A stretch of 64,000 bases of DNA from Alphaproteobacteria bacterium (GTDB lineage: Bacteria; Pseudomonadota; Alphaproteobacteria; JAAXGF01). The stretch spans positions 800,001 through 864,000 of the forward strand of contig CAUVXB020000001.1 in assembly GCA_963555825.3 (NCBI GenBank), in the 5' to 3' direction. This document shows, in pieces, positions 13,717 through 64,000 of this stretch. Under the pieces are notes generated by a model. It was not told the DNA's origin and ran no database searches. It saw nothing but the letters and a program-made list of their open reading frames with translations. A program made the position numbers and the translations under genes. Position 1 is the stretch's first letter. The number at the start of each line of letters is the position of its first letter.

Positions 13717-13789
13717 GGCCACATTATATCGTTCACGCGCAATGTTGCCCAGCACGCCGGCAACCTTGGCAATCAACCAAGTGAGGTCG

Positions 13790-14060
13790 AGCCCGGACTT
13801 CTCACCATGGACGGGTGCGGCACGGCGGATATCGGCCGACAGGCTAGGAAAAGCTCGCCGCGCGATGCTTGCGCATCGGGCAAGCGCTTTGACGCCGCCT
13901 GTCGTCCGAGATCCGCCGCCCTTCGGGTCGCGCCGGGCGGGCCGCCCGCGGCGTCGAAGACCTTGACCGTGGCCCAGGCCACGCTCGGCGGCCTTCTCCT
14001 GGCGGAATCGGCTCCGCCCGACGCGATGACGCGCCTGTCCATGGTGAGAAATCCGGGCTA
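13790..14060 (-). mobile_element. ~270-bp structured inverted-repeat element, copy A1
   Basis: TIR agcccggaYttctcaccatggac; central gacccgaagggcggc on the minus strand at 13915-13929; close homologue of 20849-21387. Confidence 0.85.
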
Positions 14061-14094
14061 GGCTGCGCCGCGACGCGGTTCACGGGATAGCGAA

Positions 14095-20844: not shown

Positions 20845-20848
20845 GGCC

Positions 20849-21387
20849 TAGCCCGGACTTCTCACTATGGACAGGCGCGTCATCGCGTCGGGCGGTCGCC
20901 GAGCCGCCAGGAGAAGGTCGCGGACCGTGGCCCGGGCCACGGTCAAGGCCTTCGACGCCGCGGGCGGCCCGCCCGGCGCGACCCGCAGGGCGACGGATCT
21001 CGGGCGACAGGCCGCGTCAAAGCGCTTGCCCGATGCGCGAGTACTCACTTGCACGATGCCACGGTACGTAGGACGGCCGTGCGTGGTCGTCCGGCAAGGC
21101 GCCCGGCGCGCCGTGATGCTGGGCGCATCACAAGCGCCGGGCAACGCCGCCGGCGGCCGCGCAAGGCCGCCCTGCGGGTCGCGTTTCCCGTCCCCTCGGG
21201 GCGTCGGGAACGCTCTGCGATGCCACGGCATCGCCGTCACGCCCCCGACTGCCGAGGAAACGGGAAACGCGATCCTACGTGCCGTGGAATCGTGCAAGGG
21301 AGTACTGGCATCGCGCCGCACGCTTTTCCTAGCCTGTCGTCCGATATCCACCGTGCCGCACCTGTCCATAGTGAGAAGGCCGGGCTA
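20849..21387 (+). mobile_element. Structured inverted-repeat element copy A2 (carries nested copy B)
   Basis: TIR tagccc/gg..ttctcactatggacagg; core gacccgcagggcg at 20980; right end overlaps the lpdA TAG stop. Confidence 0.85.
21040..21306 (-). mobile_element. Structured inverted-repeat element copy B, nested in A2
   Basis: TIR agtactcMcttgcacgatKccacggYacgtagga; core on the minus strand at 21166-21180; absent from copy A1. Confidence 0.85.
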
Positions 21388-22788
21388 AAAATGGATAATC
21401 CGGCCGTAGGCGTCAAGCACCGATTCGTGCATCATCTCCGACAGCGTCGGGTGTGGGAAGATGCTGTGCATCAGCTCGGCCTCGGTGGTCTCGAGCGTCT
21501 TGGCGACGCCGTAGCCCTGGATCAGCTCGGTCACCTCGGCGCCGATCATATGGGCGCCGAGAAGCTCTCCGGTCTTGGCGTCGAACACGGTCTTGACCAG
21601 CCCCTCGGTCTCGCCGAGCGCGATCGCCTTGCCGTTGCCGGCGAAGGGGAACTTGCCGACCTTGACCTCGTGGCCGGCCTCTCTGGCGGCCTTCTCGGTC
21701 AGGCCGACGCTCGCCACCTGCGGCATGCAGTAGGTGCAGCCCGGGATGTTCGAGACAATCAGCGGATGGACGCCGTCGAGGCCGGCGATCTTCTCGACGC
21801 AGATGATGCCTTCGTGGCTCGCCTTGTGCGCCAGCCACGGCGGGCCGACCACGTCGCCGATCGCGTAGATGCCGTCTTCGCCGGTGCGCAACCACTCGTC
21901 GACGACGATATGACCGCGGTCGACTTCGACCTTGGTGCCATCGAGCCCGAGGTCCTCGACATTGCCCGTGATACCGACGGCGAGGATGACGCGGTCGACC
22001 GTGATATTGGTCGTCTTGCCATCGCCCATGTCGATGACGGCGAGCACGTTCTTGGCCGCCTTCTGCAACGAGGTGACCGAGGCGCCGGTGTGGATCTTGA
22101 TGCCCTGTGCCTCGAACGACTTGCGCGCCAGCGCAGAGATATCCTCGTCCTCGACGGGCAGCACATTGGGCAGTATCTCGACCACGGTGACGTCGGCGCC
22201 CATGGTCCGGTAAAAGCTGGCAAACTCGATGCCGATGGCGCCCGAGCCGACGACGAGCAGCGAGGCCGGCATGGTGTCGGGCACCATCGCCTCCTTGTAG
22301 GTCCAGACGAGCTCGCCGTCGGCCTCGAGACCCGGCAGCTCGCGCGCGCGGGCACCCGACGCGAGCAAGATGTGCTTGGCGGTGAGTTCGGCGACCTCCT
22401 TGCCGTCGGCCGTGACCGCCAGCTTGCCCTTGCCGGCGAGCCGGCCATGGCCGTCGAACACCGCCACCTTGTTCTTCTTCAACAGGTGCTTGACGCCGGC
22501 CGACAGGCGCTTGGCGACGTCGCGGCTGCGCTTGACGACCTTGTCGAGGTCGAAGGCGATCTCCTTGACCGCTAGGCCGAACTCGTCGGCCCGGTGCATC
22601 AGGTGGTAGAGCTCGGCGGTGCGCAGCAGCGCCTTGGTCGGAATGCAGCCCCAGTTGAGACAGACGCCGCCGAGGTGCTCGCGCTCGACCAGCGCGACCT
22701 TGCCGCCAAGCTGGGCCGCGCGGATCGCCGTGACGTAGCCGCCCGGCCCGCCGCCGACGATGACGATATCGAAGGATGTGTCGGCCAC
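21385..22788 (-). CDS. lpdA: Dihydrolipoamide dehydrogenase E3
   Basis: GGGPGGY, GGVCLNWGCIPTK, HPTLSE. Confidence 0.97.
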   Translation of the reverse strand: MADTSFDIVIVGGGPGGYVTAIRAAQLGGKVALVEREHLGGVCLNWGCIPTKALLRTAELYHLMHRADEFGLAVKEIAFDLDKVVKRSRDVAKRLSAGVKHLLKKNKVAVFDGHGRLAGKGKLAVTADGKEVAELTAKHILLASGARARELPGLEADGELVWTYKEAMVPDTMPASLLVVGSGAIGIEFASFYRTMGADVTVVEILPNVLPVEDEDISALARKSFEAQGIKIHTGASVTSLQKAAKNVLAVIDMGDGKTTNITVDRVILAVGITGNVEDLGLDGTKVEVDRGHIVVDEWLRTGEDGIYAIGDVVGPPWLAHKASHEGIICVEKIAGLDGVHPLIVSNIPGCTYCMPQVASVGLTEKAAREAGHEVKVGKFPFAGNGKAIALGETEGLVKTVFDAKTGELLGAHMIGAEVTELIQGYGVAKTLETTEAELMHSIFPHPTLSEMMHESVLDAYGRIIHF

Positions 22789-22800
22789 CTGAGTTTTCTC

Positions 22801-24045
22801 CTAGAGCAGCATCGAGAGCGGTTCTTCGACGTACTTCTTGAAGACGCCGAGGAACGTGGCGCCGACCGAGCCGTCGACGACGCGGTGGTCGATCGAGAGC
22901 GTGCAGCTCATGACGGTGGCGATCGACAGCGCGTTCTCCTTGACGACCGCGCGCTGCTCTCCCGCGCCGACCGCGAGGATGGCGCCCTGCGGCGGGTTGA
23001 TGACGGCGGCGAACTCCTTGATGCCGAACATGCCGAGGTTCGAGATCGAGAAGGTGCCGCCCTGGAATTCCTCGGGCGAAAGCTTGCCCTCGCGGGCGCG
23101 TTTCGCGAGGTCTTTCATCTCGTTCGAGATGGTGGCGAGCCCCTTCTGGTCGGCGCCGCGCACGATCGGCGTGATCAGCCCGTCTGGGATTGCAACGGCG
23201 ACCGAGACGTCGACGCCCCGATAGACGCGGATCGCCGCGTCGGTCCACGACGCGTTGGCCGCCGGCACGTCGCGCAGCGCCAGCGCCGCGGCGCGGATGA
23301 CGAAGTCGTTGACCGAGATCTTGTAGGCGCCCTCGCCTTCCGGGCTGCGTTCGTTGAGCGCCTTGCGCGCGGTGAGCAGCGCGTCGATCTCGCAGTCGAC
23401 GGTGAGGTAGAAATGCGGTGCGTCGCGCTTCGATTCGGCGAGCCGGCGGGCGATCACCTTGCGCATGTTCGAATTCGGCTGCTCGGTGAAGGGCGGCATG
23501 CCCGGCGCCTCGCCGACCGGCGCCGGGGCGGCGGCTGGCGCCTTCGCCGGCACGTCGCCGGCCAGTGCGCCCTCGACGTCGCGCTTGACGACACGGCCGT
23601 GCGGTCCGCTGCCGGCCAGCGCAGCGATATCGAGCCCGGCCTGCGCCGCCATGCGACGCGCCAGCGGGCTGGCGAACGTCCGCTCGCCGTCGACGCGCGG
23701 CGCGGGCGCCGCGGCAGGCGGTGGCGCCGTCGGCGTCTCGGCCTTGGCCGGCGCGGCCTTGGCCGGCGCGGCGGAGACGTCAACGATCGCAGAGGCGTCC
23801 TCGCCCTCTTCGAGCAGGATGGCGATCGGCGTGTTGACCGCGACGCCCTCGGCGCCCTCGGCGATCAGGATATTGCCCATCGTGCCTTCGTCGACGGCCT
23901 CGACCTCCATGGTCGCCTTGTCGGTCTCGATCTCGACGATGATGTCGCCGGACACGACCGCGTCGCCTTCGCTCTTGTGCCACTTGACGAGGTTCCCTTC
24001 GGTCATGGTCGGCGACAAGGCCGGCATGAGAATTTCGATCGGCAT
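22801..24045 (-). CDS. pdhC: Pyruvate dehydrogenase E2 acetyltransferase
   Basis: Lipoyl domain [22 protein letters not shown]. Confidence 0.96.
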   Translation of the reverse strand: MPIEILMPALSPTMTEGNLVKWHKSEGDAVVSGDIIVEIETDKATMEVEAVDEGTMGNILIAEGAEGVAVNTPIAILLEEGEDASAIVDVSAAPAKAAPAKAETPTAPPPAAAPAPRVDGERTFASPLARRMAAQAGLDIAALAGSGPHGRVVKRDVEGALAGDVPAKAPAAAPAPVGEAPGMPPFTEQPNSNMRKVIARRLAESKRDAPHFYLTVDCEIDALLTARKALNERSPEGEGAYKISVNDFVIRAAALALRDVPAANASWTDAAIRVYRGVDVSVAVAIPDGLITPIVRGADQKGLATISNEMKDLAKRAREGKLSPEEFQGGTFSISNLGMFGIKEFAAVINPPQGAILAVGAGEQRAVVKENALSIATVMSCTLSIDHRVVDGSVGATFLGVFKKYVEEPLSMLL

Positions 24046-24107: not shown

Positions 24108-25481
24108 TTACGTCCGATAACAAATCTCCCTGGCCGCGGCCGCGATACCGTCGGGCTGCGGCAGCGCCAGGATCTCGAGGTTAGCGGCATAAGGCATGGG
24201 CACGTCGACACCGGCCACGCGGGCGACCGGGGCATCGAGGTAGTCGAAGGCATGGGTCATCATTTCCGCGGCGAGCTCGGCGCCGATGCCGGCGAACGGC
24301 CAGCCTTCCTCGACCGATACCAGCCGGTTGGTCTTCATGACCGAGGCGGTCAGCGTCTCGACGTCGAGCGGTCGCAGCGTGCGCAGATCGATCACCTCGG
24401 CCTCGATGCCCTCGCCCGCCAGCGTCTCGGCCGCGTGCAACGCGTACTCGACCATGCGCGAGAACCCGGCGATCGTGACGTCGCCGCCGGCGCGCACGAC
24501 CTTGGCGCGGCCGATCGGCACGGTGAAGTCGGGATCTTCGGGCACCTCGAAGCTCTGGCCGTAGAGAATTTCGTTTTCCAGGAAGATCACCGGGTTCGGG
24601 TCGCGGATCGCCGACTTCAAGAGCCCCTTGGCGTCGCCCGCCGAATAGGGCGCGACGACCTTGAGGCCCGGGCAATGCGCGTACCAGCTCGCGTAGCATT
24701 GCGAGTGCTGGGCGGCGACCCTGGCCGCCACGCCGTTCGGCCCGCGGAAGACGATCGGACAGCGCATCTGGCCACCCGACATGTAGAGCGTCTTGGACGC
24801 CGAATTGATGATCTGGTCGATCGCTTGCATGGCGAAATTGAAGGTCATGAACTCGACGATCGGACGCAAGCCACCGAACGCTGCGCCAACGCCGAGGCCG
24901 GTGAACCCCGCCTCGGTGATCGGCGTGTCGACCACGCGCTGGGCGCCGAATTCGTCCAGCAGGCCCTGGCTCACCTTGTAGGCGCCCTGATATTCGGCGA
25001 CCTCTTCGCCGATCAGGAAGACGGCCGGATCGCCACGCATCTCCTCGGCCATGGCGTCGCGCAAGGCCTCGCGCACGGTCTGGGTGGTGGTCTTTTCGTA
25101 GAACCTATCCTCATCGCTCGCCGGTGCCGCGGCGGCCTGGGGCGGCGCCGCCGGCGCCGATGAATCGGCCCGGACGGGCGTCGCGACTGGCGCGGGTGGT
25201 TGCGCGGCGACGGGTGTGTCGAGCACCGCGCTGTCCTCGCCGTCGCCGAGCAGGATGGCGATCGGCGTGTTGACCGCGACGCCCTCGGCGCCCTCGGCGA
25301 TCAGGATCTTGCCCATCGTGCCTTCGTCGACGGCCTCGACCTCCATGGTCGCCTTGTCGGTCTCGATCTCGACGATGATGTCGCCCGCCGTAACGGTGTC
25401 GCCGACGCTCTTGTGCCATTTCGCAACGTTGCCCTCGGTCATCGTCGGCGACAGCGCGGGCATGAGAATTTCTATCGGCAT
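24108..25481 (-). CDS. pdhB: Pyruvate dehydrogenase E1 beta with N-terminal lipoyl domain
   Basis: [32 protein letters not shown]. Confidence 0.96.
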
Positions 25482-29362: not shown

Positions 29363-29632
29363 CTAGTGGATAGAGTCCAACATGTGGCACCCATACGATC
29401 CCATATCCCGGTTTCTCGGCAGGAGAGCGCGCGCCGGCGATGCCGAAGCATCGGCAAGGGTGTTCGACGCCCCGAGAAGCCGGGATATGGGACCCGCAGG
29501 GCGGCGTCCCAAGGCCGCCGGACGCGTTGCCCGATGCTTGTGATGCTCCAGCATCACCGCACATCGGGCGCCTTTCCGGGCGACCTTGGGACGCCGTCGT
29601 ATGGGCACCATATGTTGGATTCTATCCACTAG
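29363..29632 (+). mobile_element. 270-bp structured inverted-repeat element copy C
   Basis: ~36-bp TIR ctagtggatagaRtccaacatRtggYRcccatacga; core gacccgcagggcggc at 29491; right end contains the pyrG TAG stop. Confidence 0.88.
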
Positions 29633-31257
29633 ACCAAGCGCGACTGCTCGACCGCCGCGCCGATGAACGAAGCGAACAGCGGATGCGGCTCGAACGGCCT
29701 CGACTTCAGCTCGGGGTGAAACTGGACGCCAATGAACCACGGGTGATCGGGAATCTCGACGATCTCGGGCAGCACGCCGTCGGGCGACATGCCGGAGAAC
29801 ACCAGACCGACCGCCTCGAGCCGCGGCAGGTAGTTGATGTTCACCTCGTAGCGGTGGCGGTGGCGCTCGCTGATCTCGAGCCCATCGTAGATCTCGGCTA
29901 CCCGGCTGCCGGGCTTCAGGTTGCAATCATAGGCGCCGAGCCGCATGGTGCCGCCCAGGTCGTCGTTGGTCGTACGGGTCTCGCGCACACTGCCGCGCAT
30001 CCATTCGGTAAGCAGGCCGACGACCGCCTCGTCGCTGGGTCCGAATTCGGTCGACCCCGCCTTGGGCATGCCGGCCAAATTGCGCGCCGCCTCGATGACC
30101 GCCATCTGCATGCCGAAACAGATGCCGAAATACGGGATGCGCCGTTCGCGCGCGAAGCTCGCCGCCGCCACCTTGCCCTCGGCGCCGCGCTCGCCGAAGC
30201 CGCCCGGCACGAGGATCGCGTCGACCTCGCGCAGTTCGTGCACGGCGCCGTCCGATTCGAAGATCTCGGCGTCGATCCACTCGGTGCGCACGCGCGTATT
30301 GTTGGCGATGCCGCCGTGGGTGAGCGCCTCGGCAAGCGACTTGTAGGCATCGACCAGGCCGGTGTACTTGCCGACCACGGCGATGTTGACCTCGCCTTCC
30401 GGCTCGCGGATGCGGCGGACGATATCGTGCCAACGCGTCAGTTCGGGTTCCTTGGCGTCGTCGATGCCGAAGCGCGCCAGCACCTGCACGTCGAGGCCCT
30501 CGCCGTGATAGGTCAGCGGCGCCTCGTAGATCGTCGAGACGTCGAGCGCCTGGATCACCGCTTCGGCGCGCACGTTGCAGAACAGCGCGATCTTCTTGCG
30601 TTCGGTCTCGGGGATCTCCATCACCGATCGGCACAGCACGATGTCGGCCTGGATGCCGATGCTGCGCAGCTCCTTGACCGAGTGCTGGGTCGGCTTGGTC
30701 TTCAGCTCGCCGACCGCATCGAGGTACGGCAGCAAGGTGACGTGGATAAAGCAGGAATCGTTCCTCGGCAGCTCATTCGATAGCTGCCGGATCGCCTCGA
30801 GAAATGGCAGGCTTTCGATGTCGCCGACCGTGCCGCCGATCTCGCACAGGATGAAGTCGTCCTCGTCGCTGTCGGCGAGGATGAATTCCTTGATCGCGTC
30901 GGTGACATGCGGGATCACCTGTACCGTGCCGCCCAGATAGGCGCCGCGCCGCTCGCGCGTCAACACCGTCTGATAGATGCGGCCGCTGGTGACGTTGTCG
31001 CTGCGTCGGGCCGAAACACCGGTGAAGCGTTCGTAGTGCCCCAGATCGAGGTCGGTCTCGGCGCCGTCGTCGGTGACGAACACCTCGCCGTGCTGATAGG
31101 GACTCATGGTGCCCGGGTCGACGTTGAGGTAGGGGTCGAGCTTGCGCAGCCGGACGCGATAACCGCGCGCCTGCAGCAGCGCGCCGAGCGCCGCCGAAGC
31201 CAAACCCTTGCCAAGCGAGGAAACCACACCGCCGGTAATGAACACGTACCGCGCCAT
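29629..31257 (-). CDS. pyrG: CTP synthase
   Basis: [37 protein letters not shown]. Confidence 0.98.
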
Positions 31258-36089: not shown

Positions 36090-36190
36090 CGTCGCCGCGC
36101 CGGCGCGGCGCCCCCCTGAACATCGAAAAGTTAAACGGAAATCGACCCACCCGCCGAGGCTGCATCCGGCCGGTTGTGATCAACGAATCG

Positions 36191-36229
36191 TTGACACATT
36201 CTCTCATGCGTGCTATTCTTGTTTTGTTC
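36191..36229 (+). promoter_or_regulatory. Sigma70-type promoter with overlapping LexA-like box
   Basis: TTGACA-N17-TATTCT; ATTC-N7-GTTC at 36215-36229 is one mismatch from the alphaproteobacterial GTTC-N7-GTTC box. Confidence 0.6.
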
Positions 36230-36307
36230 CAGTTTATAACTGAGATTCGACACAAGAGATGCGCCGCATCTTCGTATTGGTTCTGAGCGTTCTCGCTGTC
36301 CTCGCTA

Positions 36308-37486
36308 GTGTCCTGATCGATAAATTGATATGATTATGTCTCTATTTGTTTTTAGGAGGCGCGATTGATGGCGAGAGTGGCGGTGACGATCTCTTTGAGC
36401 GATGACGAGCGCGCCGAATTGGAGGCGCTGTCTCGTCGTCGCAAGACGTCGCAGGGGCTTGCGCGGCGGGCTCGGATCGTCTTGGCGGCGGCGGAAGGGT
36501 TGGAGAACAAGGAGATCGCCGTTCGTCTCGAGGCGAGCGCGGACACCGTGGGCAAGTGGCGTCGCCGCTATGCGGCGGAGGGCCTCGACGGTCTGTACGA
36601 CGAACCCCGCCCCGGCGCGCCGCGTCAAATCGGCGATGACGCCATCGCGGAAGCGGTCCGGCTGACGCTGGAAGAGACGCCGCCGGACGCGACCCATTGG
36701 AGCCTTCGCTCGATGGCGCGGGCGAGCGGCCACGCGCCCTCGACCATTCATCGCATCTGGCGGGCCTTCGGCTTGCAGCCGCATCGCTCGGAGACCTTCA
36801 AGCTGTCGAGCGATCCCTTCTTCGTGGAGAAGGTCCGCGACATCGTCGGTCTGTATTTGGCGCCGCCGGATCGTGCCCTGGTTCTCTGTGTCGACGAAAA
36901 GAGCCAGATCCAGGCCCTGGACCGTTCCCAGCCCCTCTTGCCGATGCGCCCCGGGCAGGCGGAGCGGCGCAGCCACGACTACAAGCGCCACGGCACGACC
37001 TCTCTCTTCGCGGCCCTCGACATCGCCACGGGAGAGATCATCGGCAAATGTTTCCCGCGCCATCGGGCCCGAGAGTTCCGCAAATTCCTCGACCTCGTCG
37101 AGGCGAACGTCCCTGCTGATCTCGACATCCACATCGTCATGGACAACTACGGGACCCACAAGACCAAGGCGATCCGCGACTGGTTCGCCAAACGGCCGCG
37201 CTGGCAGGCCCATTTCACACCCACCAGCGCCTCCTGGCTGAACCAGGTCGAGCGCTGGTTCGGGCTGCTGACCGACAAGCAGATCAGGCGCGGCGTCCAT
37301 CGCTCCACCAAGGAGTTGGAGCGCACCATCCTCGACTACATCGACACGACAAACCAGAACCCCAAACCCTTCAAATGGACCAAATCCGCCGATGACATCC
37401 TCGGCGCCATCCAGCGCTTCTGCCTCCGAACAATCGAAATCGCTGAACAGCAGGCGAAAATCATGCGAACTTCGGAATCGGGACAC
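36308..37486 (+). mobile_element. IS630-family insertion sequence
   Basis: Ends gtgtccYgat; TA duplicated at 36306-7 and 37487-8 (CTAG target). Confidence 0.92.
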
Positions 37487-37489
37487 TAG
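36368..37489 (+). CDS. IS630 DDE transposase
   Basis: [38 protein letters not shown]. Confidence 0.95.
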
Positions 37490-38502
37490 GGAGGATGTTG
37501 AAGCACGCGCCCAGACCGCCGGCAACGACTTCGGCTGGAGCGCGGAAGTCGACGCGGCACTAACCGAATTCGAGATCGGCAATACCGACGGAGCAGTCGA
37601 GCAATTGATTCCGCTTGCCGACGCGGGCGATGTCCATGCCCAGTTCCTGCTTGGGCGGTTCTACGAAGATGAGATGGAGTTCAAGGTCAACCATTGCCGC
37701 GCACTCCATTGGTACAAGGAGGCCGCGGCCCAAGGACATGCCGCAGCCACGACCGCAGCGGGCTACTTCTACCTTTCAGGATATTGCAGGCATAAGGACT
37801 ACGACGAAGCGGCCCGCTACTTCGAGCGCGCAGTGATTCTCGGTGATGCCAGCGCGGCTCTGATGTTGACCTATCTCCATCTGACCATCGACTCCGGTCA
37901 CTTCGACCCGCAATCGACCGTAAAGCGCGCCGAAACTGCGTGGGACTTGAGCCAAGAACCCAAGGGTCCCGACTGGGTGGCGATCAATGCCGCCATGGTA
38001 CTAGGACGGGTTTACGGGCGCGGCTATGGCGTTTCTAAAAATTCCGTGAAAGCGGAACATTTCCTGCGCGTTGCAGCGGAACAAGGTTCGCCAGACGCCC
38101 AGTACCAATTGGGCGAGTTTTATCGAGACCGATACGGCCATCCACGCTATCGCGAATCCTGGATGTGGTTGTCACTTGCTGCCCATCAGGGCGATCGGTC
38201 TGCCGTCGACCAGATAGCGCATCTGTCCGACGAAACACGAGTTGAAGCACGGCGGACAGCTATCGCGATGTTCGAGAAAATGATCGAAGACCCGCAGCTT
38301 GCAATCGGCAGGGCGGCCAAGTGGTGCCTCGATCACCAATCGAGCGCGGAGATTTGCCTGCGTTTCGCCTATCGAGACCACTTCGAATGCGATCCGCATA
38401 TCTCACCAGGTTACTTCGAGGCGCGGTATGTAGACTCGATCGCGTACGACGCGTGCCGGCGCGAGGTGTTCGATTCGCACGCAGAGAAGGGCGGAGGCTA
38501 GA

Positions 38503-39442
38503 ATGATATTCGCCCGGCCACTTTGCGCACTTGCATTCGTCGTATTCGCGATCGTTGCCACCGGCACGGCACCCGCAGCCTCACAGTCGGATGAGTTCGT
38601 GCCGCCCTGGAGCGCGGAGGTCGACGCCGCACTCGCATTCTTCGAAAGCGGCGATACCGAAGCGGCGATCGAGCGGCTCGAGCCGCTCGCCGAGGCGGGC
38701 GACGTCGACGCGCAATACATTCTCGGCAGTATCCATGCGCGGGGAATCGGCGTCGCCGAGGACCGCTGCCGCGCTCTCCCATGGTTTCAGCGCGCCGCCG
38801 CGCAAGACGACTCCCGAGCGATCGCATGGTTGGGCGTCTACCATCAATTGGGCGATTGCATGCCAAAGGACTACGACGAAGCGGCGCGCTACTTCAAACA
38901 GGCCGCGGAACTCGGCCAGGCCGGGGCTTACGTCTCGCTTGCTCTTCTCCATAGCGACAAGTCCGAGGGTCTGTACGATCCGATATTGACCATCAAGTGG
39001 GCAAAAAAAGAATGGGACGTAAATAAAGAAACAAATAAAGGATATCATGTTATTGTTGCGGCATTAATTTTAGGGTCTTCATATAAAGTAGGGAAAGGAG
39101 TTTCGGTAAATTTAGAAAAAGCCGCATTTTATTCTTCGTTCGCCGCAAATCAAGGACTTCACTATGCGCAATTCCTTTTGGGGAAAATTTACGAAATTCA
39201 CCGCGACCCCGCGAGGAGGTACACCGAAGGTTACGAGTGGATTTTCCTGGCGGCGTACCAGGGGAACGAGGACGCCATCGCACTGCTGCATCATTTCTAT
39301 GGCAAGGTTCCCGAATGGATGATTACGAATCTACGGAGAGCAGCGCGCGATAGACTGTTCGAGATTGCCGCAAGACCAAGGTCGCAGATCGGAAAGGCGG
39401 CCCAATGGTGCCAATCCCACAAATCGGGCTCGTTCGAATCTT
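38503..39442 (+). pseudogene. Second secreted Sel1-repeat protein, 3'-truncated by IS1595
   Basis: Paralogue of the upstream gene (WSAEVDAAL, KDYDEAARYF, IGKAAQWC); the last ~45 aa of the ORF are IS sequence. Confidence 0.8.
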
Positions 39443-40544
39443 GCCTATCCGGTTTACACCCACACCCACTAGGGCTAGAATGGGCGCAAACCGGATATAG
39501 GGGAGCGCGCCATGGATGTTCTCGACCGCGCCGATCTCCCATTCCCGCATTCGCTACCCGAGTTCCAGCGACTTTTCCCCGATGATGCGGCCTGCGCCGC
39601 CTACCTGGAGAAAGCCCGCTGGGGAGACGGCTTTGCCTGCCCGCACTGCGGCACGGCGGGAGAGCCGTTCCACTTTGAAAACCGCCCTGGCGTCCTGCGC
39701 TGCCGCAAGTGCCGCCAGAACACCGGGCTGACGGTGGGAACAGTGATGGAGCGTAGCCACACTCCGCTGAACGTCTGGTTCTGGGCCGCTTATCTGGTCG
39801 CCAGTCAGACGCCCGGCATGTCCGCCGTGCAGTTTCAGCGGCAACTTGGTCTTTCGCGCTACGAGACGGCCTTTCAAATTCTCCACAAGCTCCGCTCGGG
39901 CATGGTGCGGCCCAACCAAGACAGGATCGGTGGACAGCCCAAGAACCATGTTGAGGTGGACGAAACCTGGGTTGGCGGGCGAACGCGTGGGGAAGGCCGT
40001 GGTGTTCACCACAAGGTTCTCGTCTCCTGTGCCATCGAGGTGCGTCATCGAAAGCCGGGCACCAAGCTCGACAACCGGAAAGACGGACGCTATGCCGGAC
40101 GCGTTCGGCTCGCCGTCGTGCTCGACCGTAGCGCCGAGTCGCTCTGTGGGTTCGTCGAGAGCACCGTCGCGCCGGGATCGCTGATCGTTACTGACGATTG
40201 GAGCGGCTATGCTGGCCTCGGTAAGCGCGGCTATGAGCACTTCGCTGTTGCCGAGTGTGGTGATCCAGAGGTTGCCGAGCAATACCTGCCGATCATCCAT
40301 CTGGTTTTCGCCAACCTGAAGACGTGGCTGATCGGTATCCACCACGGCGTTAGCCACCAGCACCTACAAGCCTACCTCAACGAGTTCACCTTCCGCTTCA
40401 ACAGGCGGTTCTACCCGTTCAACGCCTTCCGCTCATTGCTCGGCATCGCGGGCGACACCTCTGCTCCAACCTATGCCGAGCTTTACTCGGGAGAGTGGCG
40501 GCACCCTACATGTAGCGGTCATGGGCGTTAACCGGATAGGCAAG
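39440..40544 (+). mobile_element. IS1595-family insertion sequence
   Basis: IR cttgcctatccggttWacRccca; exact ends uncertain by ~2 bp; no target duplication visible. Confidence 0.88.
39512..40531 (+). CDS. IS1595 transposase (Zn ribbon + DDE)
   Basis: CPHCG..CRKC, VEVDETW, TDDW, YLNEFTFRFNRR. Confidence 0.93.
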   Translation: MDVLDRADLPFPHSLPEFQRLFPDDAACAAYLEKARWGDGFACPHCGTAGEPFHFENRPGVLRCRKCRQNTGLTVGTVMERSHTPLNVWFWAAYLVASQTPGMSAVQFQRQLGLSRYETAFQILHKLRSGMVRPNQDRIGGQPKNHVEVDETWVGGRTRGEGRGVHHKVLVSCAIEVRHRKPGTKLDNRKDGRYAGRVRLAVVLDRSAESLCGFVESTVAPGSLIVTDDWSGYAGLGKRGYEHFAVAECGDPEVAEQYLPIIHLVFANLKTWLIGIHHGVSHQHLQAYLNEFTFRFNRRFYPFNAFRSLLGIAGDTSAPTYAELYSGEWRHPTCSGHGR

Positions 40545-43099
<2,555 letters not shown>

Positions 43100-43383
43100 C
43101 GCTCAACCCCCTTACAGCCGATAGGATACGCCGCATCGCAAGATTGGGGAATACCGGATGACAAAGGCAATACACGGGCAAAAAGCTGAACCACCAATGT
43201 CGGTTGTGGGTAATCGGCTCAAAGCAGACATGTTCCGCTAATGAGCAGACATTCCTGGCGTTGTTTCGGCGAATTTTCTAACTGAGAGATGATCAACACG
43301 ACCAAGGGTGCAAACGGTGAGTCGGACCCGATTTCCTTGGACACAGAATTGGCTTAATCGAAGTGTCCAAGGAGGACCGGAAC

Positions 43384-43794
43384 ATGACCGACAATTTTGA
43401 GAACAAAGTTGCTGTTGATGGGCCTGTGGTAAACGAGGGCGAGCTTGGCTCGTCCACGTTTTCCCCGGGCCAGGTTTCGCCGGCAGGCCCGCTGGGACTT
43501 GGCCAGCGGTGGACGGTGACGCGCAAGCGTGAGGTTGCCCTGCGGCTTTTGCGTGGCGAGCCGGTGGAACTTTTGTCGCGGCAGTTGGGCGTGGAGATTT
43601 TCCGGCTCGAGCAGTGGCGTGAGAAGGCGATCGCCGGGATCGATGCCTCGCTCAAGGAACGCAAGGGCGATCCGGTGAAGGCGGAACTGGACATCGCCAT
43701 GAAGCGGATCGGGGAGTTGATCATGCAGGTGGAACTGCTGGAGGCCAAGACGGAGACGTCCGGCCCTTTGGGGCGGCGGAGGTCGCGGCGATGA
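43384..43794 (+). CDS. IS3-type OrfA (HTH)
   Basis: RWTVTRKREVALRLLRGE; ATGA overlap with orfB. Confidence 0.85.
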   Translation: MTDNFENKVAVDGPVVNEGELGSSTFSPGQVSPAGPLGLGQRWTVTRKREVALRLLRGEPVELLSRQLGVEIFRLEQWREKAIAGIDASLKERKGDPVKAELDIAMKRIGELIMQVELLEAKTETSGPLGRRRSRR

Positions 43795-44702
43795 GTGCCG
43801 CCACCTCTCCCGGCACGGGTTTGGCCTACGGCCTCCAGCGGGTCTGTGCGGCCTGGGGTTTTGCCCGTTCCTCGTTCTACGCCATGAAATCCCGGCAGCA
43901 GGCCACCGCTGAGCGCCCACCAGCAAAGCGCCGGGGACCGAAGCCCTCGATCTCGGACGAGGCTCTGCTGGTGGCCATCGAGGCCGACCTGGAGGCATCC
44001 CCCTGGGAGGGCGAGGGACACCGCAAGGTCTGGGCTCGGCTTCGGGTCTGTCGTGGCATCCGTGTTTCCCGCAAGCGGGGGCTCCGGGTGATGCGCGAGA
44101 ACAACCTGCTCTCGCCCCATCGCTGCCGCCGCCGTGGCGGAAATCCCCATGTCGGTGAGATCATCACCCATGCCCCCAACCTCATGTGGGGCACGGACGG
44201 CGTTCGGGTGTTCACGGTGGACGACGGCTGGGGCTGGATATTCACCGCCATCGAGCATTGGAACGCCGAGTGCGTCGGCTGGCATGTGTGCAAGCGAGGC
44301 GACCGCTTCGCCGCCCTTCAGCCGATCTCCATGGGGCTTGCGAGGCTGTATGCCTCGACCTCCGCCGGTGCGGCGCGGGGGCTGGCCTTGCGGATGGATC
44401 ACGGCTCCCAGTATCTGTCGGACCACTTCACCAACCAGATCAAGTTCTGGGGCATCCAGCCGTCCTACGCCTTCGTCGAACAGCCCCAGACCAACGGCGT
44501 CGCCGAGAGGTTCAATCGCACGCTCAAGGAACAGATCATCCATGGCCGCATCTACCGCAACATCGCGGAGCTGCGGAACGCCGTCCGCGGGTTCGTCGAA
44601 CAGTACAATGCCCAGTGGATCGTGGAGAAGAACGGCTACCTGAGCCCCGCTCAAGCTCGTCAGGCGTGGCACACCGCGATGTCACTCAGGCCCGCCGCAT
44701 GA
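43791..44702 (+). CDS. IS3-type OrfB (rve DDE transposase)
   Basis: WGTDG, MDHGSQY, NGVAERFNRTLKE. Confidence 0.92.
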   Translation: MSAATSPGTGLAYGLQRVCAAWGFARSSFYAMKSRQQATAERPPAKRRGPKPSISDEALLVAIEADLEASPWEGEGHRKVWARLRVCRGIRVSRKRGLRVMRENNLLSPHRCRRRGGNPHVGEIITHAPNLMWGTDGVRVFTVDDGWGWIFTAIEHWNAECVGWHVCKRGDRFAALQPISMGLARLYASTSAGAARGLALRMDHGSQYLSDHFTNQIKFWGIQPSYAFVEQPQTNGVAERFNRTLKEQIIHGRIYRNIAELRNAVRGFVEQYNAQWIVEKNGYLSPAQARQAWHTAMSLRPAA

Positions 44703-53845: not shown

Positions 53846-55529
53846 CAGACTGTGTAAGAACGTTTGCTGCGTGATCTGTACGGCGCGTCTTTGGCTTCGA
53901 TGATCCGTCGCGGCGGGTATTCCGGGATTAAGGATTTTCGCCACTCGTGCGGACCTGTCGGCCGGCTGGCGCCGGTGTGAGCTGCGATTTGGCCGGATAT
54001 GGGCGCAATTTGCGGCGCAGAGAGGCCTATGCGGTCCTCATCGCCGCGATCAGCGGGTCGATGCCCGTGATGTTCATGACGCGCTTGAGATTGTAGGCCA
54101 GCACGTGCAGGGCCATCTCGGTCCTCACCCGTTTCAGCGTCTTCGTCTGGAAATGCGTCGCGCCCATCCAGGACTTGATGGTGCCGAAGGGATGCTCGGC
54201 CGTCTCGCGCCGCCGACGCATCGCCTCCGGGTGCTCGTCGAGCCGCCTCTCGACGGCCTCGAGAACATGCTCGTGCTGCCAGCGGGTGATGCGGCGCTGC
54301 TTGGCCGTGGTGCAGCGATGCTTGATGGCGCATCCCTGACAGGCGTTGGTCCAGTAGCGCCGCATGCTCAGCCCCCTCTCCTGGCTGGTGAAGCGGTAGA
54401 CCAAACGCTCGCCGGCCGGGCAGCGATAGACATCGTCGGCGGCCAGATAGACGAAGTCCTGTTTGCCGAAGCGGCCCTTGGCCTTGGCTCCAGAGGTCAG
54501 CGGCTTAGGCAATGTGACGGTGATGCCGGCCTCATCGCAGGCCAGAATCTCCTTACCGTTGTAGTAGCCGCGATCGGCAACGACATCCAACTCGTCGGTC
54601 TCCAGAGCCGCCTTGGTCCGCTTCGCCATGGCTGAGAGCTGGGCGCGGTCGGTGCCCTGATTGGTCACCTCGTGGGCGACGATCAGGTGGTGCTTGGTGT
54701 CGACGGCGGCCTGAACGTTGTAGCCGACCACGCCGGAACCCCGGCCGCTCGTCGCCATCGAGCGGGCATCGGGATCGCTCAGAGAGATCTGCTGGTCCGG
54801 GCTCGCACGCCGCTCGACTTCAAGCGCCTTCAGGCGCCGCATCTCCTCCTTGAGGATCGCGATCTTGTCGGCCAGACGAGTCGTCTTGGTCGTGCGCGCC
54901 AGCGACGGCTCTTGCCGGTCGGCGCTGTCCAACTGGTCCAGATAGCGCGCAACGCTCTCCTCGATCTGCGCCACCCGCCGCGCCATCTTGGCCCGCGTGA
55001 AGTTCCTGTCCCGGCTGTTGACCGCCTTGAACTTCGAGCCATCGATCGCCACGCTCGCCTCGGCGAACAGCCCGAGTTGCCGGCACAGCGCGACGAACCG
55101 GGCGCAGACCTTGCGGATCGCACGGCCGTTGTCCTTGCGGAAGTCGGCGATCGTCTTGTGATCCGGCGCCAGCCGGCCGACCAGCCACATCACTTCCACA
55201 TTGCGCCCGGCCTCCCTCTCGAGCCGACGGCTCGACTGAACCCGGTTGAGATAGCCGTAGATGTAGAGCTTCAACAAATCGCAAGGATGATAGGCCGGCC
55301 TGCCGGTCGCCAGCGGCTCGACCCGGTCGAACCCGAGGCCGCCAAGATCGAGCTCATCGACGAAGACGTCGATCGCCCGAACCGGGTTGTCGTCGCCGAT
55401 CCAGTCTTCCAGGCGCTCCGGAAACAACGTGCCCTGGCTGCGATCGACACCCTCGACAAAACGCTTCATCAGACCCTCCCGCCAAAGCACGAGAGAATCA
55501 TAACACCATCGACGTTTTTACACAGTCTG
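53846..55529 (-). mobile_element. IS1182-family insertion sequence
   Basis: IR cagactgtgtaaRaacgt; 4-bp duplication GGTC at 53842-45 and 55530-33. Confidence 0.92.
54027..55469 (-). CDS. IS1182 transposase
   Basis: GRPAYHP, SSRRLE, PDHKTIADFRK, IDGSK, ADRGY, EHPFG. Confidence 0.94.
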   Translation of the reverse strand: MKRFVEGVDRSQGTLFPERLEDWIGDDNPVRAIDVFVDELDLGGLGFDRVEPLATGRPAYHPCDLLKLYIYGYLNRVQSSRRLEREAGRNVEVMWLVGRLAPDHKTIADFRKDNGRAIRKVCARFVALCRQLGLFAEASVAIDGSKFKAVNSRDRNFTRAKMARRVAQIEESVARYLDQLDSADRQEPSLARTTKTTRLADKIAILKEEMRRLKALEVERRASPDQQISLSDPDARSMATSGRGSGVVGYNVQAAVDTKHHLIVAHEVTNQGTDRAQLSAMAKRTKAALETDELDVVADRGYYNGKEILACDEAGITVTLPKPLTSGAKAKGRFGKQDFVYLAADDVYRCPAGERLVYRFTSQERGLSMRRYWTNACQGCAIKHRCTTAKQRRITRWQHEHVLEAVERRLDEHPEAMRRRRETAEHPFGTIKSWMGATHFQTKTLKRVRTEMALHVLAYNLKRVMNITGIDPLIAAMRTA

Positions 55530-55664
55530 GGTCGAAAGCAGCGGTTCGGCATTAGGCCTTGGTGCCCTGCAATCGTCCCCTCCCGGCCCGAACCAGGCCT
55601 TCATTAAACCGATTCCCCCTCGCGCCTCCCCTTGACAGCCGGGCGACCATCGTGTTTTCTCCCT

Positions 55665-55720
55665 TCAGCGCCGATTTGACCGATCAGCTTGCGGGCGCTT
55701 AACAAATACGGCTAAAGCGA
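55665..55720 (+). ncRNA. SAM-II (SAM-alpha) riboswitch
   Basis: GCGCCGATTTGACCG..TTGCGGGCGCTTAACAAAT..GCTAAAG resembles the SAM-II pseudoknot consensus; TTGACA at 55632; upstream of a sulfur assimilation gene. Confidence 0.8.
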
Positions 55721-55724
55721 TGGC

Positions 55725-55756
55725 AACCGCCACGCCCCGCCGTGGCGGTTTTTTTA
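55725..55756 (+). terminator. Intrinsic terminator directly after the riboswitch aptamer
   Basis: aaccgccacg-loop-cgtggcggtt followed by a T run. Confidence 0.8.
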
Positions 55757-55832: not shown

Positions 55833-56603
55833 ATGTACGACGACCGCCTCGCCCTGCCCGGCCCGCTGCCCTATTCACCGCTCGATGACCCTGCCGCCGC
55901 GCGCGCCCAGGCGCTGAGCAACACATACGGCCATCTCGATGCGGTCGCGCTGCTCGAGGTCATGATCGGGCGCGAGTTTCCCGGCCGGATCGCGCTGGTC
56001 TCGTCATTCGGCGCCGAGTCGGCGCTGCTCTTGGACCTGGTCGCCGGCATCGACCGCGCCACGCCGGTGATCTTCCTCGACACCGGCAAGCTGTTCCCCG
56101 AGACGCTGGCCTACCGCGATGAATTGGTCGATTGGCTCGGCCTCGGCGACGTTCGCGCCATTCAGCCCCCGGCCGACGTACTCGCGGCGCACGACCCCGG
56201 CGGTGATCTCTGGCGGCGCGATCCGGACGCCTGCTGCGCATTGCGCAAGGTCGCACCGCTGGCCGGGGCGCTGGCCGGGTTCGACGCCTGGATCACCGGG
56301 CGCAAGCGCCACCACGGCGCCGCGCGGGCCACGCTCGACACCATCGAGGCGGTCGACGGGCGCGTTAAGATCAACCCGCTCGCCGATTGGTCGGCCGCGC
56401 GTATCGAGGCCGGGATCGCCGCCCGCGGCTTGCCGCGCCATCCGTTGCAGGACGCTGGCTACGCGTCGATCGGCTGCGTCACCTGCACGCGACCGCTCGA
56501 GCGCGGCGAGGCGGCGCGCGCGGGCCGCTGGGCGGGCCTCGCCAAGACCGAGTGCGGCATCCACCGTGCGCCCAGGGACACACGACCGGATGTGGCGGAC
56601 TGA
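55833..56603 (+). CDS. cysH: (P)APS reductase
   Basis: SSFGAES, LDTGKLFPET, CCALRKV, SIGCVTCT, KTECGIH. Confidence 0.93.
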   Translation: MYDDRLALPGPLPYSPLDDPAAARAQALSNTYGHLDAVALLEVMIGREFPGRIALVSSFGAESALLLDLVAGIDRATPVIFLDTGKLFPETLAYRDELVDWLGLGDVRAIQPPADVLAAHDPGGDLWRRDPDACCALRKVAPLAGALAGFDAWITGRKRHHGAARATLDTIEAVDGRVKINPLADWSAARIEAGIAARGLPRHPLQDAGYASIGCVTCTRPLERGEAARAGRWAGLAKTECGIHRAPRDTRPDVAD

Positions 56604-58980: not shown

Positions 58981-59052
58981 CGCGGGGTTCCGGCCGGTTT
59001 TTGCGTCTGGCAAAGCTAGCACAATCCGCGTATACCGCCGTCCGGTTATGTA

Positions 59053-59316
59053 ATACCAAGGACCAGTGATAAAGACCCATAGAGATCGCGTCCGCTTTTC
59101 GCCGGTGAGGCAAGGGAGCCGCGGGCGATGCAGCGCATCGGCTAGGCTTCCTGACGCCCTCCGGCGATAAGCGGACGCGACCCGAAGGGCGGTTTGCCGA
59201 GGCTCTCGGACGTCGTTGCGCCCGTCTTGCGATGCGCTGCATCGCCGCGACGGGCGCGCCTAGCCGAGAACCACGGCAAGCCGTCTCCATGGGTCTTTAT
59301 CACTGTTCCTTGGTAT
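59053..59316 (+). mobile_element. 264-bp structured inverted-repeat element copy D
   Basis: TIR ataccaaggaMcagtgataaagacccatRgaga; core gacccgaagggcgg at 59179; extra 19-bp TIR arm at 59318-59336. Confidence 0.88.
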
Positions 59317-59344
59317 AATACCAAGGAACAGTGATAGGACAGTC

Positions 59345-63171: not shown

Positions 63172-64000
63172 TGAGTCGGACCCGATTTCCTTGGACACAG
63201 AATTGGCTTAATCGAAGTGTCCAAGGAGGACCGGAACATGACCGACAATTTTGAGAACAAAGTTGCTGTTGATGGGCCTGTGGTAAACGAGGGCGAGCTT
63301 GGCTCGTCCACGTTTTCCCCGGGCCAGGTTTCGCCGGCAGGCCCGCTGGGACTTGGCCAGCGGTGGACGGTGACGCGCAAGCGTGAGGTTGCCCTGCGGC
63401 TTTTGCGTGGCGAGCCGGTGGAACTTTTGTCGCGGCAGTTGGGCGTGGAGATTTTCCGGCTCGAGCAGTGGCGTGAGAAGGCGATCGCCGGGATCGATGC
63501 CTCGCTCAAGGAACGCAAGGGCGATCCGGTGAAGGCGGAACTGGACATCGCCATGAAGCGGATCGGGGAGTTGATCATGCAGGTGGAACTGCTGGAGGCC
63601 AAGACGGAGACGTCCGGCCCTTTGGGGCGGCGGAGGTCGCGGCGATGAGTGCCGCCACCTCTCCCGGCACGGGTTTGGCCTACGGCCTCCAGCGGGTCTG
63701 TGCGGCCTGGGGTTTTGCCCGTTCCTCGTTCTACGCCATGAAATCCCGGCAGCAGGCCACCGCTGAGCGCCCACCAGCAAAGCGCCGGGGACCGAAGCCC
63801 TCGATCTCGGACGAGGCTCTGCTGGTGGCCATCGAGGCCGACCTGGAGGCATCCCCCTGGGAGGGCGAGGGACACCGCAAGGTCTGGGCTCGGCTTCGGG
63901 TCTGTCGTGGCATCCGTGTTTCCCGCAAGCGGGGGCTCCGGGTGATGCGCGAGAACAACCTGCTCTCGCCCCATCGCTGCCGCCGCCGTGGCGGAAATCC
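63172..64000 (+). mobile_element. IS3-type insertion sequence copy 2 (runs off window)
   Basis: Appears identical to copy 1 from 43318 onward (same OrfA protein, offset 19854 bp). Confidence 0.93.

Follow-up and report, generated by a model that had tools for sequence, protein, structure and literature searches.

Mirror-image arms of a dispersed intergenic repeat in Alphaproteobacteria favor opposite strands

Why would a short intergenic repeat carry one asymmetric hairpin module twice, once on each strand? The question is raised by a 64,000-nucleotide stretch of DNA from an Alphaproteobacteria bacterium (NCBI GenBank assembly GCA_963555825.3, contig CAUVXB020000001.1, positions 800,001 to 864,000 of the forward strand), which we call the window. 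Positions 29363-29632 of this window form a 270-nt intergenic element, termed C, located between two minus-strand genes, with the stop codon of the pyrG-like one on one side and the start of the kdsA-like one on the other. Five such related elements, each of about 270 nt, occur within the 64 kb: A, B, N (which lies inside B), C and E. An earlier note on this DNA had proposed that the two arms of each element are inverted versions of one motif, so that each strand carries one correctly oriented arm, and that this arrangement fits a DNA substrate of a dimeric protein better than a single-orientation non-coding RNA (ncRNA). We found that each arm acts like a strand-specific fold, with the two arms using opposite strands. 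Our best explanation, which we advance tentatively, is that the elements are non-coding dispersed mobile repeats resembling MITEs (transposable elements of the miniature inverted-repeat kind) and REPINs, and that their arms are a head-to-head pair of tagged modules recognized by a trans-acting enzyme as folded DNA, one per strand.

The predicted fold of every copy, from either strand, was the same perfect four-way junction with zero unpaired junction bases. Its branches are, in order, an outer stem of 32-33 bp, arm 1 (94-99 nt), a CCC-GNA-GGG mini-hairpin of 3 bp and arm 2 (94-96 nt), which gives arms of about 95 nt each and whole elements of 267-276 bp. The outer stems end at TA, mostly inside CTAG. 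When folded as single-stranded DNA (ssDNA), the two strands of element C reached -106.5 and -106.2 kcal/mol (z = -14.9 and -14.2 relative to dinucleotide shuffles), and both produced the same four-way junction. Polarity is marked by the GNA loop and by the first letters of the arms, which are TCGCG in arm 1 and CGGCG in arm 2, and all copies were oriented by the GNA mini-hairpin together with this arm-start polarity. Element C is made up as follows.

29363-29632, plus strand: element C as a whole, from CTAG to CTAG, with its orientation taken from the central GNA mini-hairpin on the plus strand.
29366-29398, no strand assigned: 5′ half of the outer stem, which pairs with 29597-29629; the TA is at 29364-29365.
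29399-29492, plus strand: arm 1, with a 21-bp stem, AGGAG internal loop, 8-bp helix, GATGC/GCATC hairpin, CAAG and GACGCC; its sense strand is plus.
29493-29501, plus strand: central mini-hairpin, CCC-GCA-GGG, at the four-way junction.
29502-29596, minus strand: arm 2, the same module with its sense on the minus strand, scoring 93.6 bits with the nine-arm model described below.
29597-29632, no strand assigned: 3′ half of the outer stem and the terminal CTAG; the pyrG-like gene (29632-31257, minus strand) has its TAG stop codon in the CTA at 29629-29631.

Read 5′ to 3′, the module consists of a long stem, N-A-G-G-A, an 8-bp helix, a GC-clamped 6-bp hairpin, R-A-G, the returning helix, G-A-C-G-C-C and the returning long stem. 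The arms stand head to head, and the sense reading of each goes inward from the element's nearer end. The motif strings quoted in the earlier note were present in element C where it had placed them, with arm 1 on the plus strand and the arm 2 motif on the minus strand. The note had also suggested a covariance model as a check. We therefore built a model from the five arm 1 sequences only and scanned the whole window with filters off. Each of the four intact arm 2 sequences scored higher on the opposite strand than on the same strand: 65.0 against 25.4 bits for A, 58.9 against 31.7 bits for C, 42.1 against 19.7 bits for E, and 33.6 against 13.9 bits or less for N, where the same-strand match was partial. 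Arm 1 of C scored 91.7 bits on the plus strand and 31.7 bits on the minus strand with this model, and the best match in the window outside the elements reached 18.6 bits (E = 0.057). The note had counted ten arms; nine are intact, and the tenth, arm 2 of B, is interrupted by the nested element N. Any inverted-repeat mobile element likewise has two ends that mirror each other by descent, and the origin of the arrangement may be trivial. It is the maintenance of the arrangement, not its origin, that needs a function.

To follow the family beyond the window, loci in other genomes were collected by one pattern scan of genome contigs, in which the 3′ tag of arm 1 was joined to the central hairpin. 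The scan returned at least 116 loci, so range and copy numbers outside the window are lower bounds, and all figures for loci given here hold among the matches listed. Since the pattern demands GACGCC and the central hairpin, arm 1 of the loci has these letters by design of the search; no such constraint applies to arm 2. Most of the pattern matches were chance matches in high-GC genomes. At least 18 matched the arm model, in metagenome-assembled genomes (MAGs) labelled Alphaproteobacteria, Rhodospirillales, Geminicoccaceae or Proteobacteria. With a second covariance model, built from all nine intact arms of the window, at least 41 arms from the window and the loci scored 44-94 bits in the sense reading, whereas the antisense of the same arms scored 39 bits or less. 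In all 18 two-armed elements (4 in the window and 14 in other genomes), the arms were on opposite strands and about 10 nt apart. The other five are single arms, from elements that are interrupted (B), cut by the end of a contig (loci L027 and L070), missing arm 2 (L076) or truncated (L111). Four MAG contigs (L003, L027, L070 and L091) end inside an element.

Similarity between the window and the loci was confined to the elements, at 70-87% identity, and the flanks never matched. The closest pairs were A with L047 of another genome (87%), C with L106 (81%), N with L024 and with L033 (both 80%) and E with L094 (77%). Three types of outer stem were found: type I begins with TA followed by GCCCGGATTTCTCAC..., type II with TA followed by GTGGATAG... 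or GTACCCAC..., and type III with TACCAAGG... Because only the elements and not the flanks match the window, the same outer-stem types occur at different genomic sites across species.

We asked whether the fold of the arms is kept while their sequences change. In the alignment of 41 arms, 92.9% of 1423 cells could pair, compared with 63.4% after shuffling and 34-44% when the partners were slid, and 32 of the 35 pairs changed on both sides (in 403 cells). None of 500 shuffles reached any of these pairing measures. The alignment was fitted to the model, which favors pairing, yet the stems are almost free of insertions and deletions. When the nine window arms alone were aligned with MAFFT and folded with RNAalifold, 26 of 35 pairs were compensated. 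Helix lengths were constant, while stem sequences were wholly different between end types. The letters of the internal loop, by contrast, were kept in both arms: A30 and G31 in 39 of 41 arms, G32 in 36 and A33 in 34. A77, C78 and G79 were invariant in 41 of 41 arms, with arm 1 of the loci constrained there by the search pattern, and the G-C clamps of the apical hairpin were likewise present in all 41. The internal region consists of a 2 x 3 loop, a G-C pair and a tandem G·A/A·G that adjoins the 8-bp helix.

The two arms of a single element differ throughout their stems and have only the motif in common. Across species, arms cluster by position; for example, arm 1 of type I has GTAGC and arm 2 of type I has GATGC. 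Since the arms group by position and share only the motif, the motif is kept by selection on each arm and not by copying between arms. Judging from these sequence comparisons, both arms appear to be old, independently evolving copies of one asymmetric module.

We then considered which strand each arm favors, using counts of G·T pairs and A·C mismatches. Reading each arm in its own sense against the consensus structure gave 89 G·T and 25 A·C (50 against 9 for arm 1, and 35 against 15 for arm 2). By arm, G·T exceeded A·C in 31, A·C exceeded G·T in 5, and 5 were tied. The excess persisted when relatives were collapsed, with 68 against 22 at 80% identity or more and 41 against 19 at 70%. Sense strands were also the more stable ones: RNA parameters gave this result in 40 of 40 arms (mean gap -8.5 kcal/mol) and DNA parameters in 37 of 40 (mean gap -2.7 kcal/mol), one cut arm being left out of this comparison; the conserved purine loops themselves account for part of the gap. 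For both arms, going 5′ to 3′ along the sense strand leads from the nearer terminus into the element. Some G·T pairs recurred at the same stem positions (columns 17/91, 38/71 and 37/72) across many subfamilies of either arm, and these may be conserved wobbles in a recognition surface.

The tabulation of wobbles per strand that the earlier note had called for thus gave two answers. Each arm favored its own sense strand, but the strands of whole elements were balanced, with 109 G·T on the oriented strand and 96 on its complement across 17 elements. The whole-element count hides the signal because the oppositely facing arms cancel. The outer stems provide an internal control for the bias of the arms. 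In 16 elements, 492 of 528 outer-stem positions were Watson-Crick pairs, with 10 G·T against 15 A·C, and the outer stems, being without strand bias, therefore act like a duplex inverted repeat. Taken together, the opposite-strand scores, the wobble bias per arm and the stability of the sense strands bear out the proposal that each strand carries one correctly oriented arm. They also argue against a single-orientation ncRNA, as the note had held. Its further proposals, that the acting form is DNA and that a dimeric protein binds it, go beyond these data, with which RNA from either strand also fits.

The other elements of the window bear on whether the family is mobile. They are the following.

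13788-14061, minus strand: element A, end type I; arm 1 at 13928-14026 (minus), center at 13919-13927, arm 2 at 13823-13918 (sense plus).
20848-21388, plus strand: element B, end type I; arm 1 at 20883-20981 (plus), center at 20982-20990, arm 2 at 20991-21039 and 21307-21352, split by N.
21040-21306, minus strand: element N, situated inside B, within the apical loop of that element's arm 2; arm 1 at 21179-21272 (minus), center at 21170-21178, arm 2 at 21074-21169 (sense plus).
59051-59318, plus strand: element E, end type III; arm 1 at 59086-59180 (plus), center at 59181-59189, arm 2 at 59190-59283 (sense minus).
59318-59336, plus strand: extra inverted copy of the right end of E, 18-19 nt, forming a perfect palindrome with 59298-59316 just before the start codon of the next gene.

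The five copies are at unrelated intergenic sites, with N inserted in B. A is 90% alike to B, and N is 76% alike to C across 156 nt. The genes that flank the elements are unrelated housekeeping genes, arranged divergently (A, E, L047), convergently (L033, L041, L076) or in tandem (B, C, L040, L062), and no transposase was found within 1.5 kb in the flanks of 11 loci. An apparent bias of orientation relative to transcription, 7 to 1 when judged from long open reading frames (ORFs), was rejected after codon-position GC scoring of all flanks: genes read into the complement of the oriented strand in four cases (B, C, L024 and L040) and into the oriented strand in three or four (L062, L098, L111 and, weakly, L106). 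Of the 18 elements with both ends present, 8 have TA at each end, 8-9 have it at a single end and one (N) has it at neither; CTAG is itself palindromic. Element ends were taken from ungapped pairing, as trimming from minimum-free-energy folds was unreliable. IS630 is listed with a 2-bp duplication and the target motif CTAG in Table 1 of PMC2577343. A target-site duplication may account for the terminal TA of the elements. Dispersal, nesting, end types common to different species and TA/CTAG flanks together point to a non-autonomous mobile repeat.

Several individual copies show further features at their ends or in their arms. The terminal C-TA of an element forms the TAG stop codon of the upstream gene at the lpdA-like gene (CTA at 21385-21387, the end of element B), at the pyrG-like gene next to C and at L024 (1664-1666). 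Since G follows TA at both ends, insertion into the TA of a stop codon rebuilds the stop. In L076, L086 and L111 the element end reads TGA or TAA, and in L076 this closes the neighboring ORF. L076 (about 1461-1644) is without arm 2, of which about 8 nt of the stem base are left, and L111 is cut off after the central hairpin; the exact loss in L076 and the truncation in L111 look like hairpin-precise deletions and hint at the replication slippage expected across a DNA hairpin. N, alone among the elements in lacking TA on both sides, sits precisely at the tip loop of B's second arm (21030-21045 and 21300-21312), which may reflect structure-directed targeting of hairpin tips. At the end of E, the covariance-model search returned a palindromic match at 59300-59334 on both strands, and L088 has a 21-nt tandem duplicate of element end, TA and flank. 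The inverted end copy of E and the duplicate in L088 may be traces of aberrant insertion or excision.

We searched for an RNA family, a plasmid match or a published description that would account for the elements. With Rfam 15 at the gathering score, the only match in the window was SAM_alpha at 55658-55736, and no family covered the elements. At an E-value threshold, the best Rfam match to element C was mir-49 at 22.8 bits (gathering score 60), and five loci gave nothing below E = 0.25. The weak matches to miRNA-type families and to naRNA4 were set aside as hairpin noise. A blastn search of the PLSDB plasmids found nothing for C and, for A, two partial (20-24%) matches at E = 6e-3. Canonical CGTC-tagged repetitive extragenic palindromic (REP) sequences were not above chance in the window, at 8 compared with 3.65 in shuffles. 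A literature search of limited reach found no published bacterial MITE with a four-way junction and no element matching this one.

Known functional motifs were also considered by eye and rejected. A kink-turn does not fit, because the 28-82 pair covaries and the three letters after the tandem G·A are thereby a bulge on the wrong side. GGA sites for CsrA were discarded since the fourth letter is C in 7 arms. Strings resembling DnaA boxes were noted in the outer stems of type II but are not general, and a promoter or terminator function was dropped for lack of a T run.

Of the known repeats, the CGTC-tagged REPs of Alphaproteobacteria invite the closest comparison with the arms. As described by Di Nocera, De Gregorio and Rocco (2013; PMC3733652), these have a CGTC (or TGTC/CCTC) tag, an 8-9 bp stem with A·T pairs at its first two positions, a loop of 4-5 nt and a 3-nt tail that is mostly CCA. 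In that account, head-to-head (HH) dimers predominate, dimers set within longer palindromes and spacers with small stem-loops are mentioned, and no associated transposase is reported. The arm core, read on the other strand, resembles this description in its CGTC, its 8-bp stem, its CC(T/G) tail, its head-to-head arrangement, its occurrence in Alphaproteobacteria and the lack of a transposase. Columns 76-79, read as their reverse complement, give the tag: 35 of 41 arms have CGTC and 6 have CGTT. The search pattern constrained these letters in arm 1 of the loci but left them free in the 19 arm 2 sequences and in the window arms. The tail is CCT in 34 of 41 arms and CCG in 7. The helix that adjoins the tag has 8 covarying pairs, with G-C at the first position in 30 arms and A-T in 9, and A-T at the second position in 13. 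Unlike the CGTC REPs, the arms have a structured insert of 24-28 nt with a further 6-bp hairpin instead of the 4-5 nt loop, the core is mounted on a 21-bp stem, and the pair is framed by the 32-33 bp outer stem and TA. Given the structured insert, and with canonical CGTC REPs not above chance in the window, we have not filed the elements as members of the CGTC REPs.

Other systems share single features with the elements. REPINs, as presented by Bertels and Rainey (PMC3337134), are two inverted hairpin units of which one is correctly oriented on each strand, with REP units of 20-40 nt and a GTAG tag, the two units pairing with one another to form a single hairpin. This one-unit-per-strand logic of REPINs and bacterial interspersed mosaic elements (BIMEs), which are mobilized by the REP-associated tyrosine transposases (RAYTs) of the Y1/HUH type, is the nearest known parallel to the idea in the earlier note. 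In contrast to the REPINs described there, the units here are about 95 nt, fold on themselves and are not mutually complementary, and they come with a CGTC-type tag, a four-way junction, TA flanks and an outer stem. The 76 ORFs of the window include no RAYT gene. MITEs of the IS630/Tc1-mariner group such as RUP are, according to PMC2229807, small, non-coding, dispersed and multicopy, with terminal inverted repeats (TIRs) and TA/CTAG flanks, and they can insert in other repeats, all of which applies to the elements. They differ from the MITEs so described in that the ends vary by type while the interior is kept by structure, and no matching autonomous element was found in the window. Nor would strand-specific folding constraints on the arms be expected from the double-strand-binding DDE transposase of IS630-type MITEs. 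The CIR repeats of Caulobacter and Brucella are likewise alphaproteobacterial and intergenic, with two long hairpin arms joined by a linker, but the same source gives them about 110 bp and a conserved GANTC exposed in the loop. The present elements are longer, at 267-276 bp, and have an outer stem; only 4 of 17 contain GANTC, with no fixed place. In PATE, which derives from IS200/IS605, the subterminal hairpins are both on the top strand, unlike the opposite-strand arms in 18 of 18 elements here.

How, then, is the mirror arrangement best explained? If the elements are mobile repeats of the kind we favor, the module would be the recognition element of a trans-acting mobilizing enzyme, probably a dimer or a paired-end complex, to which the module would present itself as a single strand folded on itself or as an extruded hairpin, one on each strand, and which would act at TA, about three helical turns from the junction. 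The layout of one arm per strand is the symmetry of transposon ends, as a dimeric or paired-end complex imposes it. We infer that the folded form is DNA and that an enzyme reads it. Three features hint at DNA: copies are present in divergent, convergent and tandem intergenic regions, in both orientations and including divergent promoter regions; L076 has lost exactly its arm 2, to the stem base; and N has gone into an arm hairpin at its tip. A fuller version of this explanation, in which both strands fold, either into a branched cruciform or as two single strands, a dimeric structure-specific enzyme docks on the two sense arms, one per strand, and the DNA is cut and rejoined at the TA 32-33 bp from the junction, we regard as unlikely. 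A number of observations count against the explanation by folded mobile DNA. The mobilizing enzyme was not found: no Y1/HUH protein (Y1_Tnp) was present among the 76 ORFs of the window or in the flanks of 11 loci. The transposases of the window belong to the IS630, IS1595, IS3 and IS5/IS1182 families, and a link to the IS630-family copy, the only one in the window (36365-37486), was rejected, since its ends read TA followed by GTGTCCTGATCG... and differ from every outer-stem type, and since it has no arms. N is without TA flanks, and the TA may be part of a terminal palindrome and not a duplication. Copies within the genome are old, as seen from the identities of A with B (90%) and C with N (76%), so recent mobility is unsupported. 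Four elements (B, C, L040 and L062) are between co-directional genes, where transcription is expected. The G·T counts are not independent events, and they come from an alignment fitted to the model. Finally, the tolerance of G·U, the tandem G·A and the larger energy gap with RNA parameters suit RNA at least equally.

These last points lead to a somewhat unlikely but serious rival, an orientation-proof RNA module that would serve as a transcript processing site, a stability element, an insulator between cistrons or a protein-binding decoy. With mirrored arms, read-through RNA of either strand starts with a sense arm, so any insertion orientation would supply the same RNA structure. Covariation, frequent G·U and tandem G·A in purine-rich internal loops are typical of structured RNA, the sense/antisense energy gap is bigger with RNA parameters, the four elements between co-directional genes would be transcribed, and in B, C and L024 the element starts where the upstream gene has its stop codon. 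According to PMC2229807, regulation of neighboring mRNAs by the RNA hairpins of bacterial MITEs has been reported, which supports such a role. This RNA explanation sits less well with A, E and L047, which are between divergent genes where read-through is not expected, with the antisense arm, which would be dead weight in each transcript, and with outer stems that by eye have neither a T run nor a conserved promoter-like box. No Rfam family matched, and selection at the level of the host on hundreds of dispersed copies would be weak, whereas selection in each round of mobilization explains the covariation more easily. An ordinary IS630/Tc1-mariner MITE, whose DDE transposase would bind only the outer stem and whose arms would be passengers from an ancestral fold-back duplication, mirrored for no other reason than that inverted ends are symmetric, is in our judgment improbable. 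It would account for the TA/CTAG flanks and the terminal inverted repeats of 32-33 bp, for the several end types, as if there were different cognate transposases, and for the outer stems without strand bias, and the window does contain an IS630-family transposase. Yet passengers would not keep 93% pairing through full turnover of the stems, invariant loops in both arms and a strand-specific excess of G·T; an inside that is conserved between variable ends is the reverse of the usual MITE; and the ends of the resident IS630 do not match. Strong covariation, conserved geometry and a central hairpin that confers polarity would also be expected of a family of single-orientation structured ncRNA genes of about 270 nt. 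We disfavor this last reading as very improbable, given that the arms prefer opposite strands, that the whole-element wobble is balanced (109 against 96), that the elements occur in both orientations relative to neighboring genes and in nested, TA-flanked copies, and that Rfam has no match.

Several other features of the window were recorded along the way. By eye, a stretch from about 36100 to 43300 has a lower GC content and contains a TA-flanked IS630-family element (36306-37489), two ORFs with Sel1 repeats, an IS1595-family element (39440-40544) and a gene for an 888-amino-acid protein with a caspase domain, the gene containing a 276-nt tandem repeat (40545-41189). Two copies of the start of an IS3-family element, at 43318-43617 and 63172-63471, are 100% identical and 19.9 kb apart, with an ORF for an rve domain at 43791-44699. 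The SAM-alpha (SAM-II) riboswitch at 55658-55736 (38.1 bits compared with a gathering score of 36) is upstream of a PAPS-reductase-domain gene (55833-56600) and adjoins an IS5/IS1182-family transposase (54030-55490); together with the relatives of the elements, it assigns the DNA to Alphaproteobacteria. A 262-nt direct repeat with 88% identity, at 23784-24045 and 25220-25481, corresponds to the lipoyl domains of the E2 and E1-beta genes in a pyruvate dehydrogenase cluster.

For annotation, the elements matter in that they supply the stop codons of neighboring genes, break MAG assemblies and carry spurious ORFs of 84-173 amino acids. The covariance model of the arm can be used for a census of the family and for seeking a co-occurring enzyme. 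REPs, REPINs and MITEs are common, but the molecule that acts (double-stranded DNA, ssDNA or RNA) and the acting strand are rarely known, and the CGTC-tagged repeats of Alphaproteobacteria have no known enzyme. The family described here offers an unusually clean comparative signal, in which an outer stem behaves like duplex and the arms behave like single strands that prefer opposite strands. If the elements are indeed mobile DNA read by its shape and not its sequence, the fact that wobble pairs lean to opposite strands in the two arms would testify, by sequence comparison, to in vivo folding of both strands in a bacterial mobile element, and it could identify the acting strand of the long-orphan CGTC-tagged repeats.

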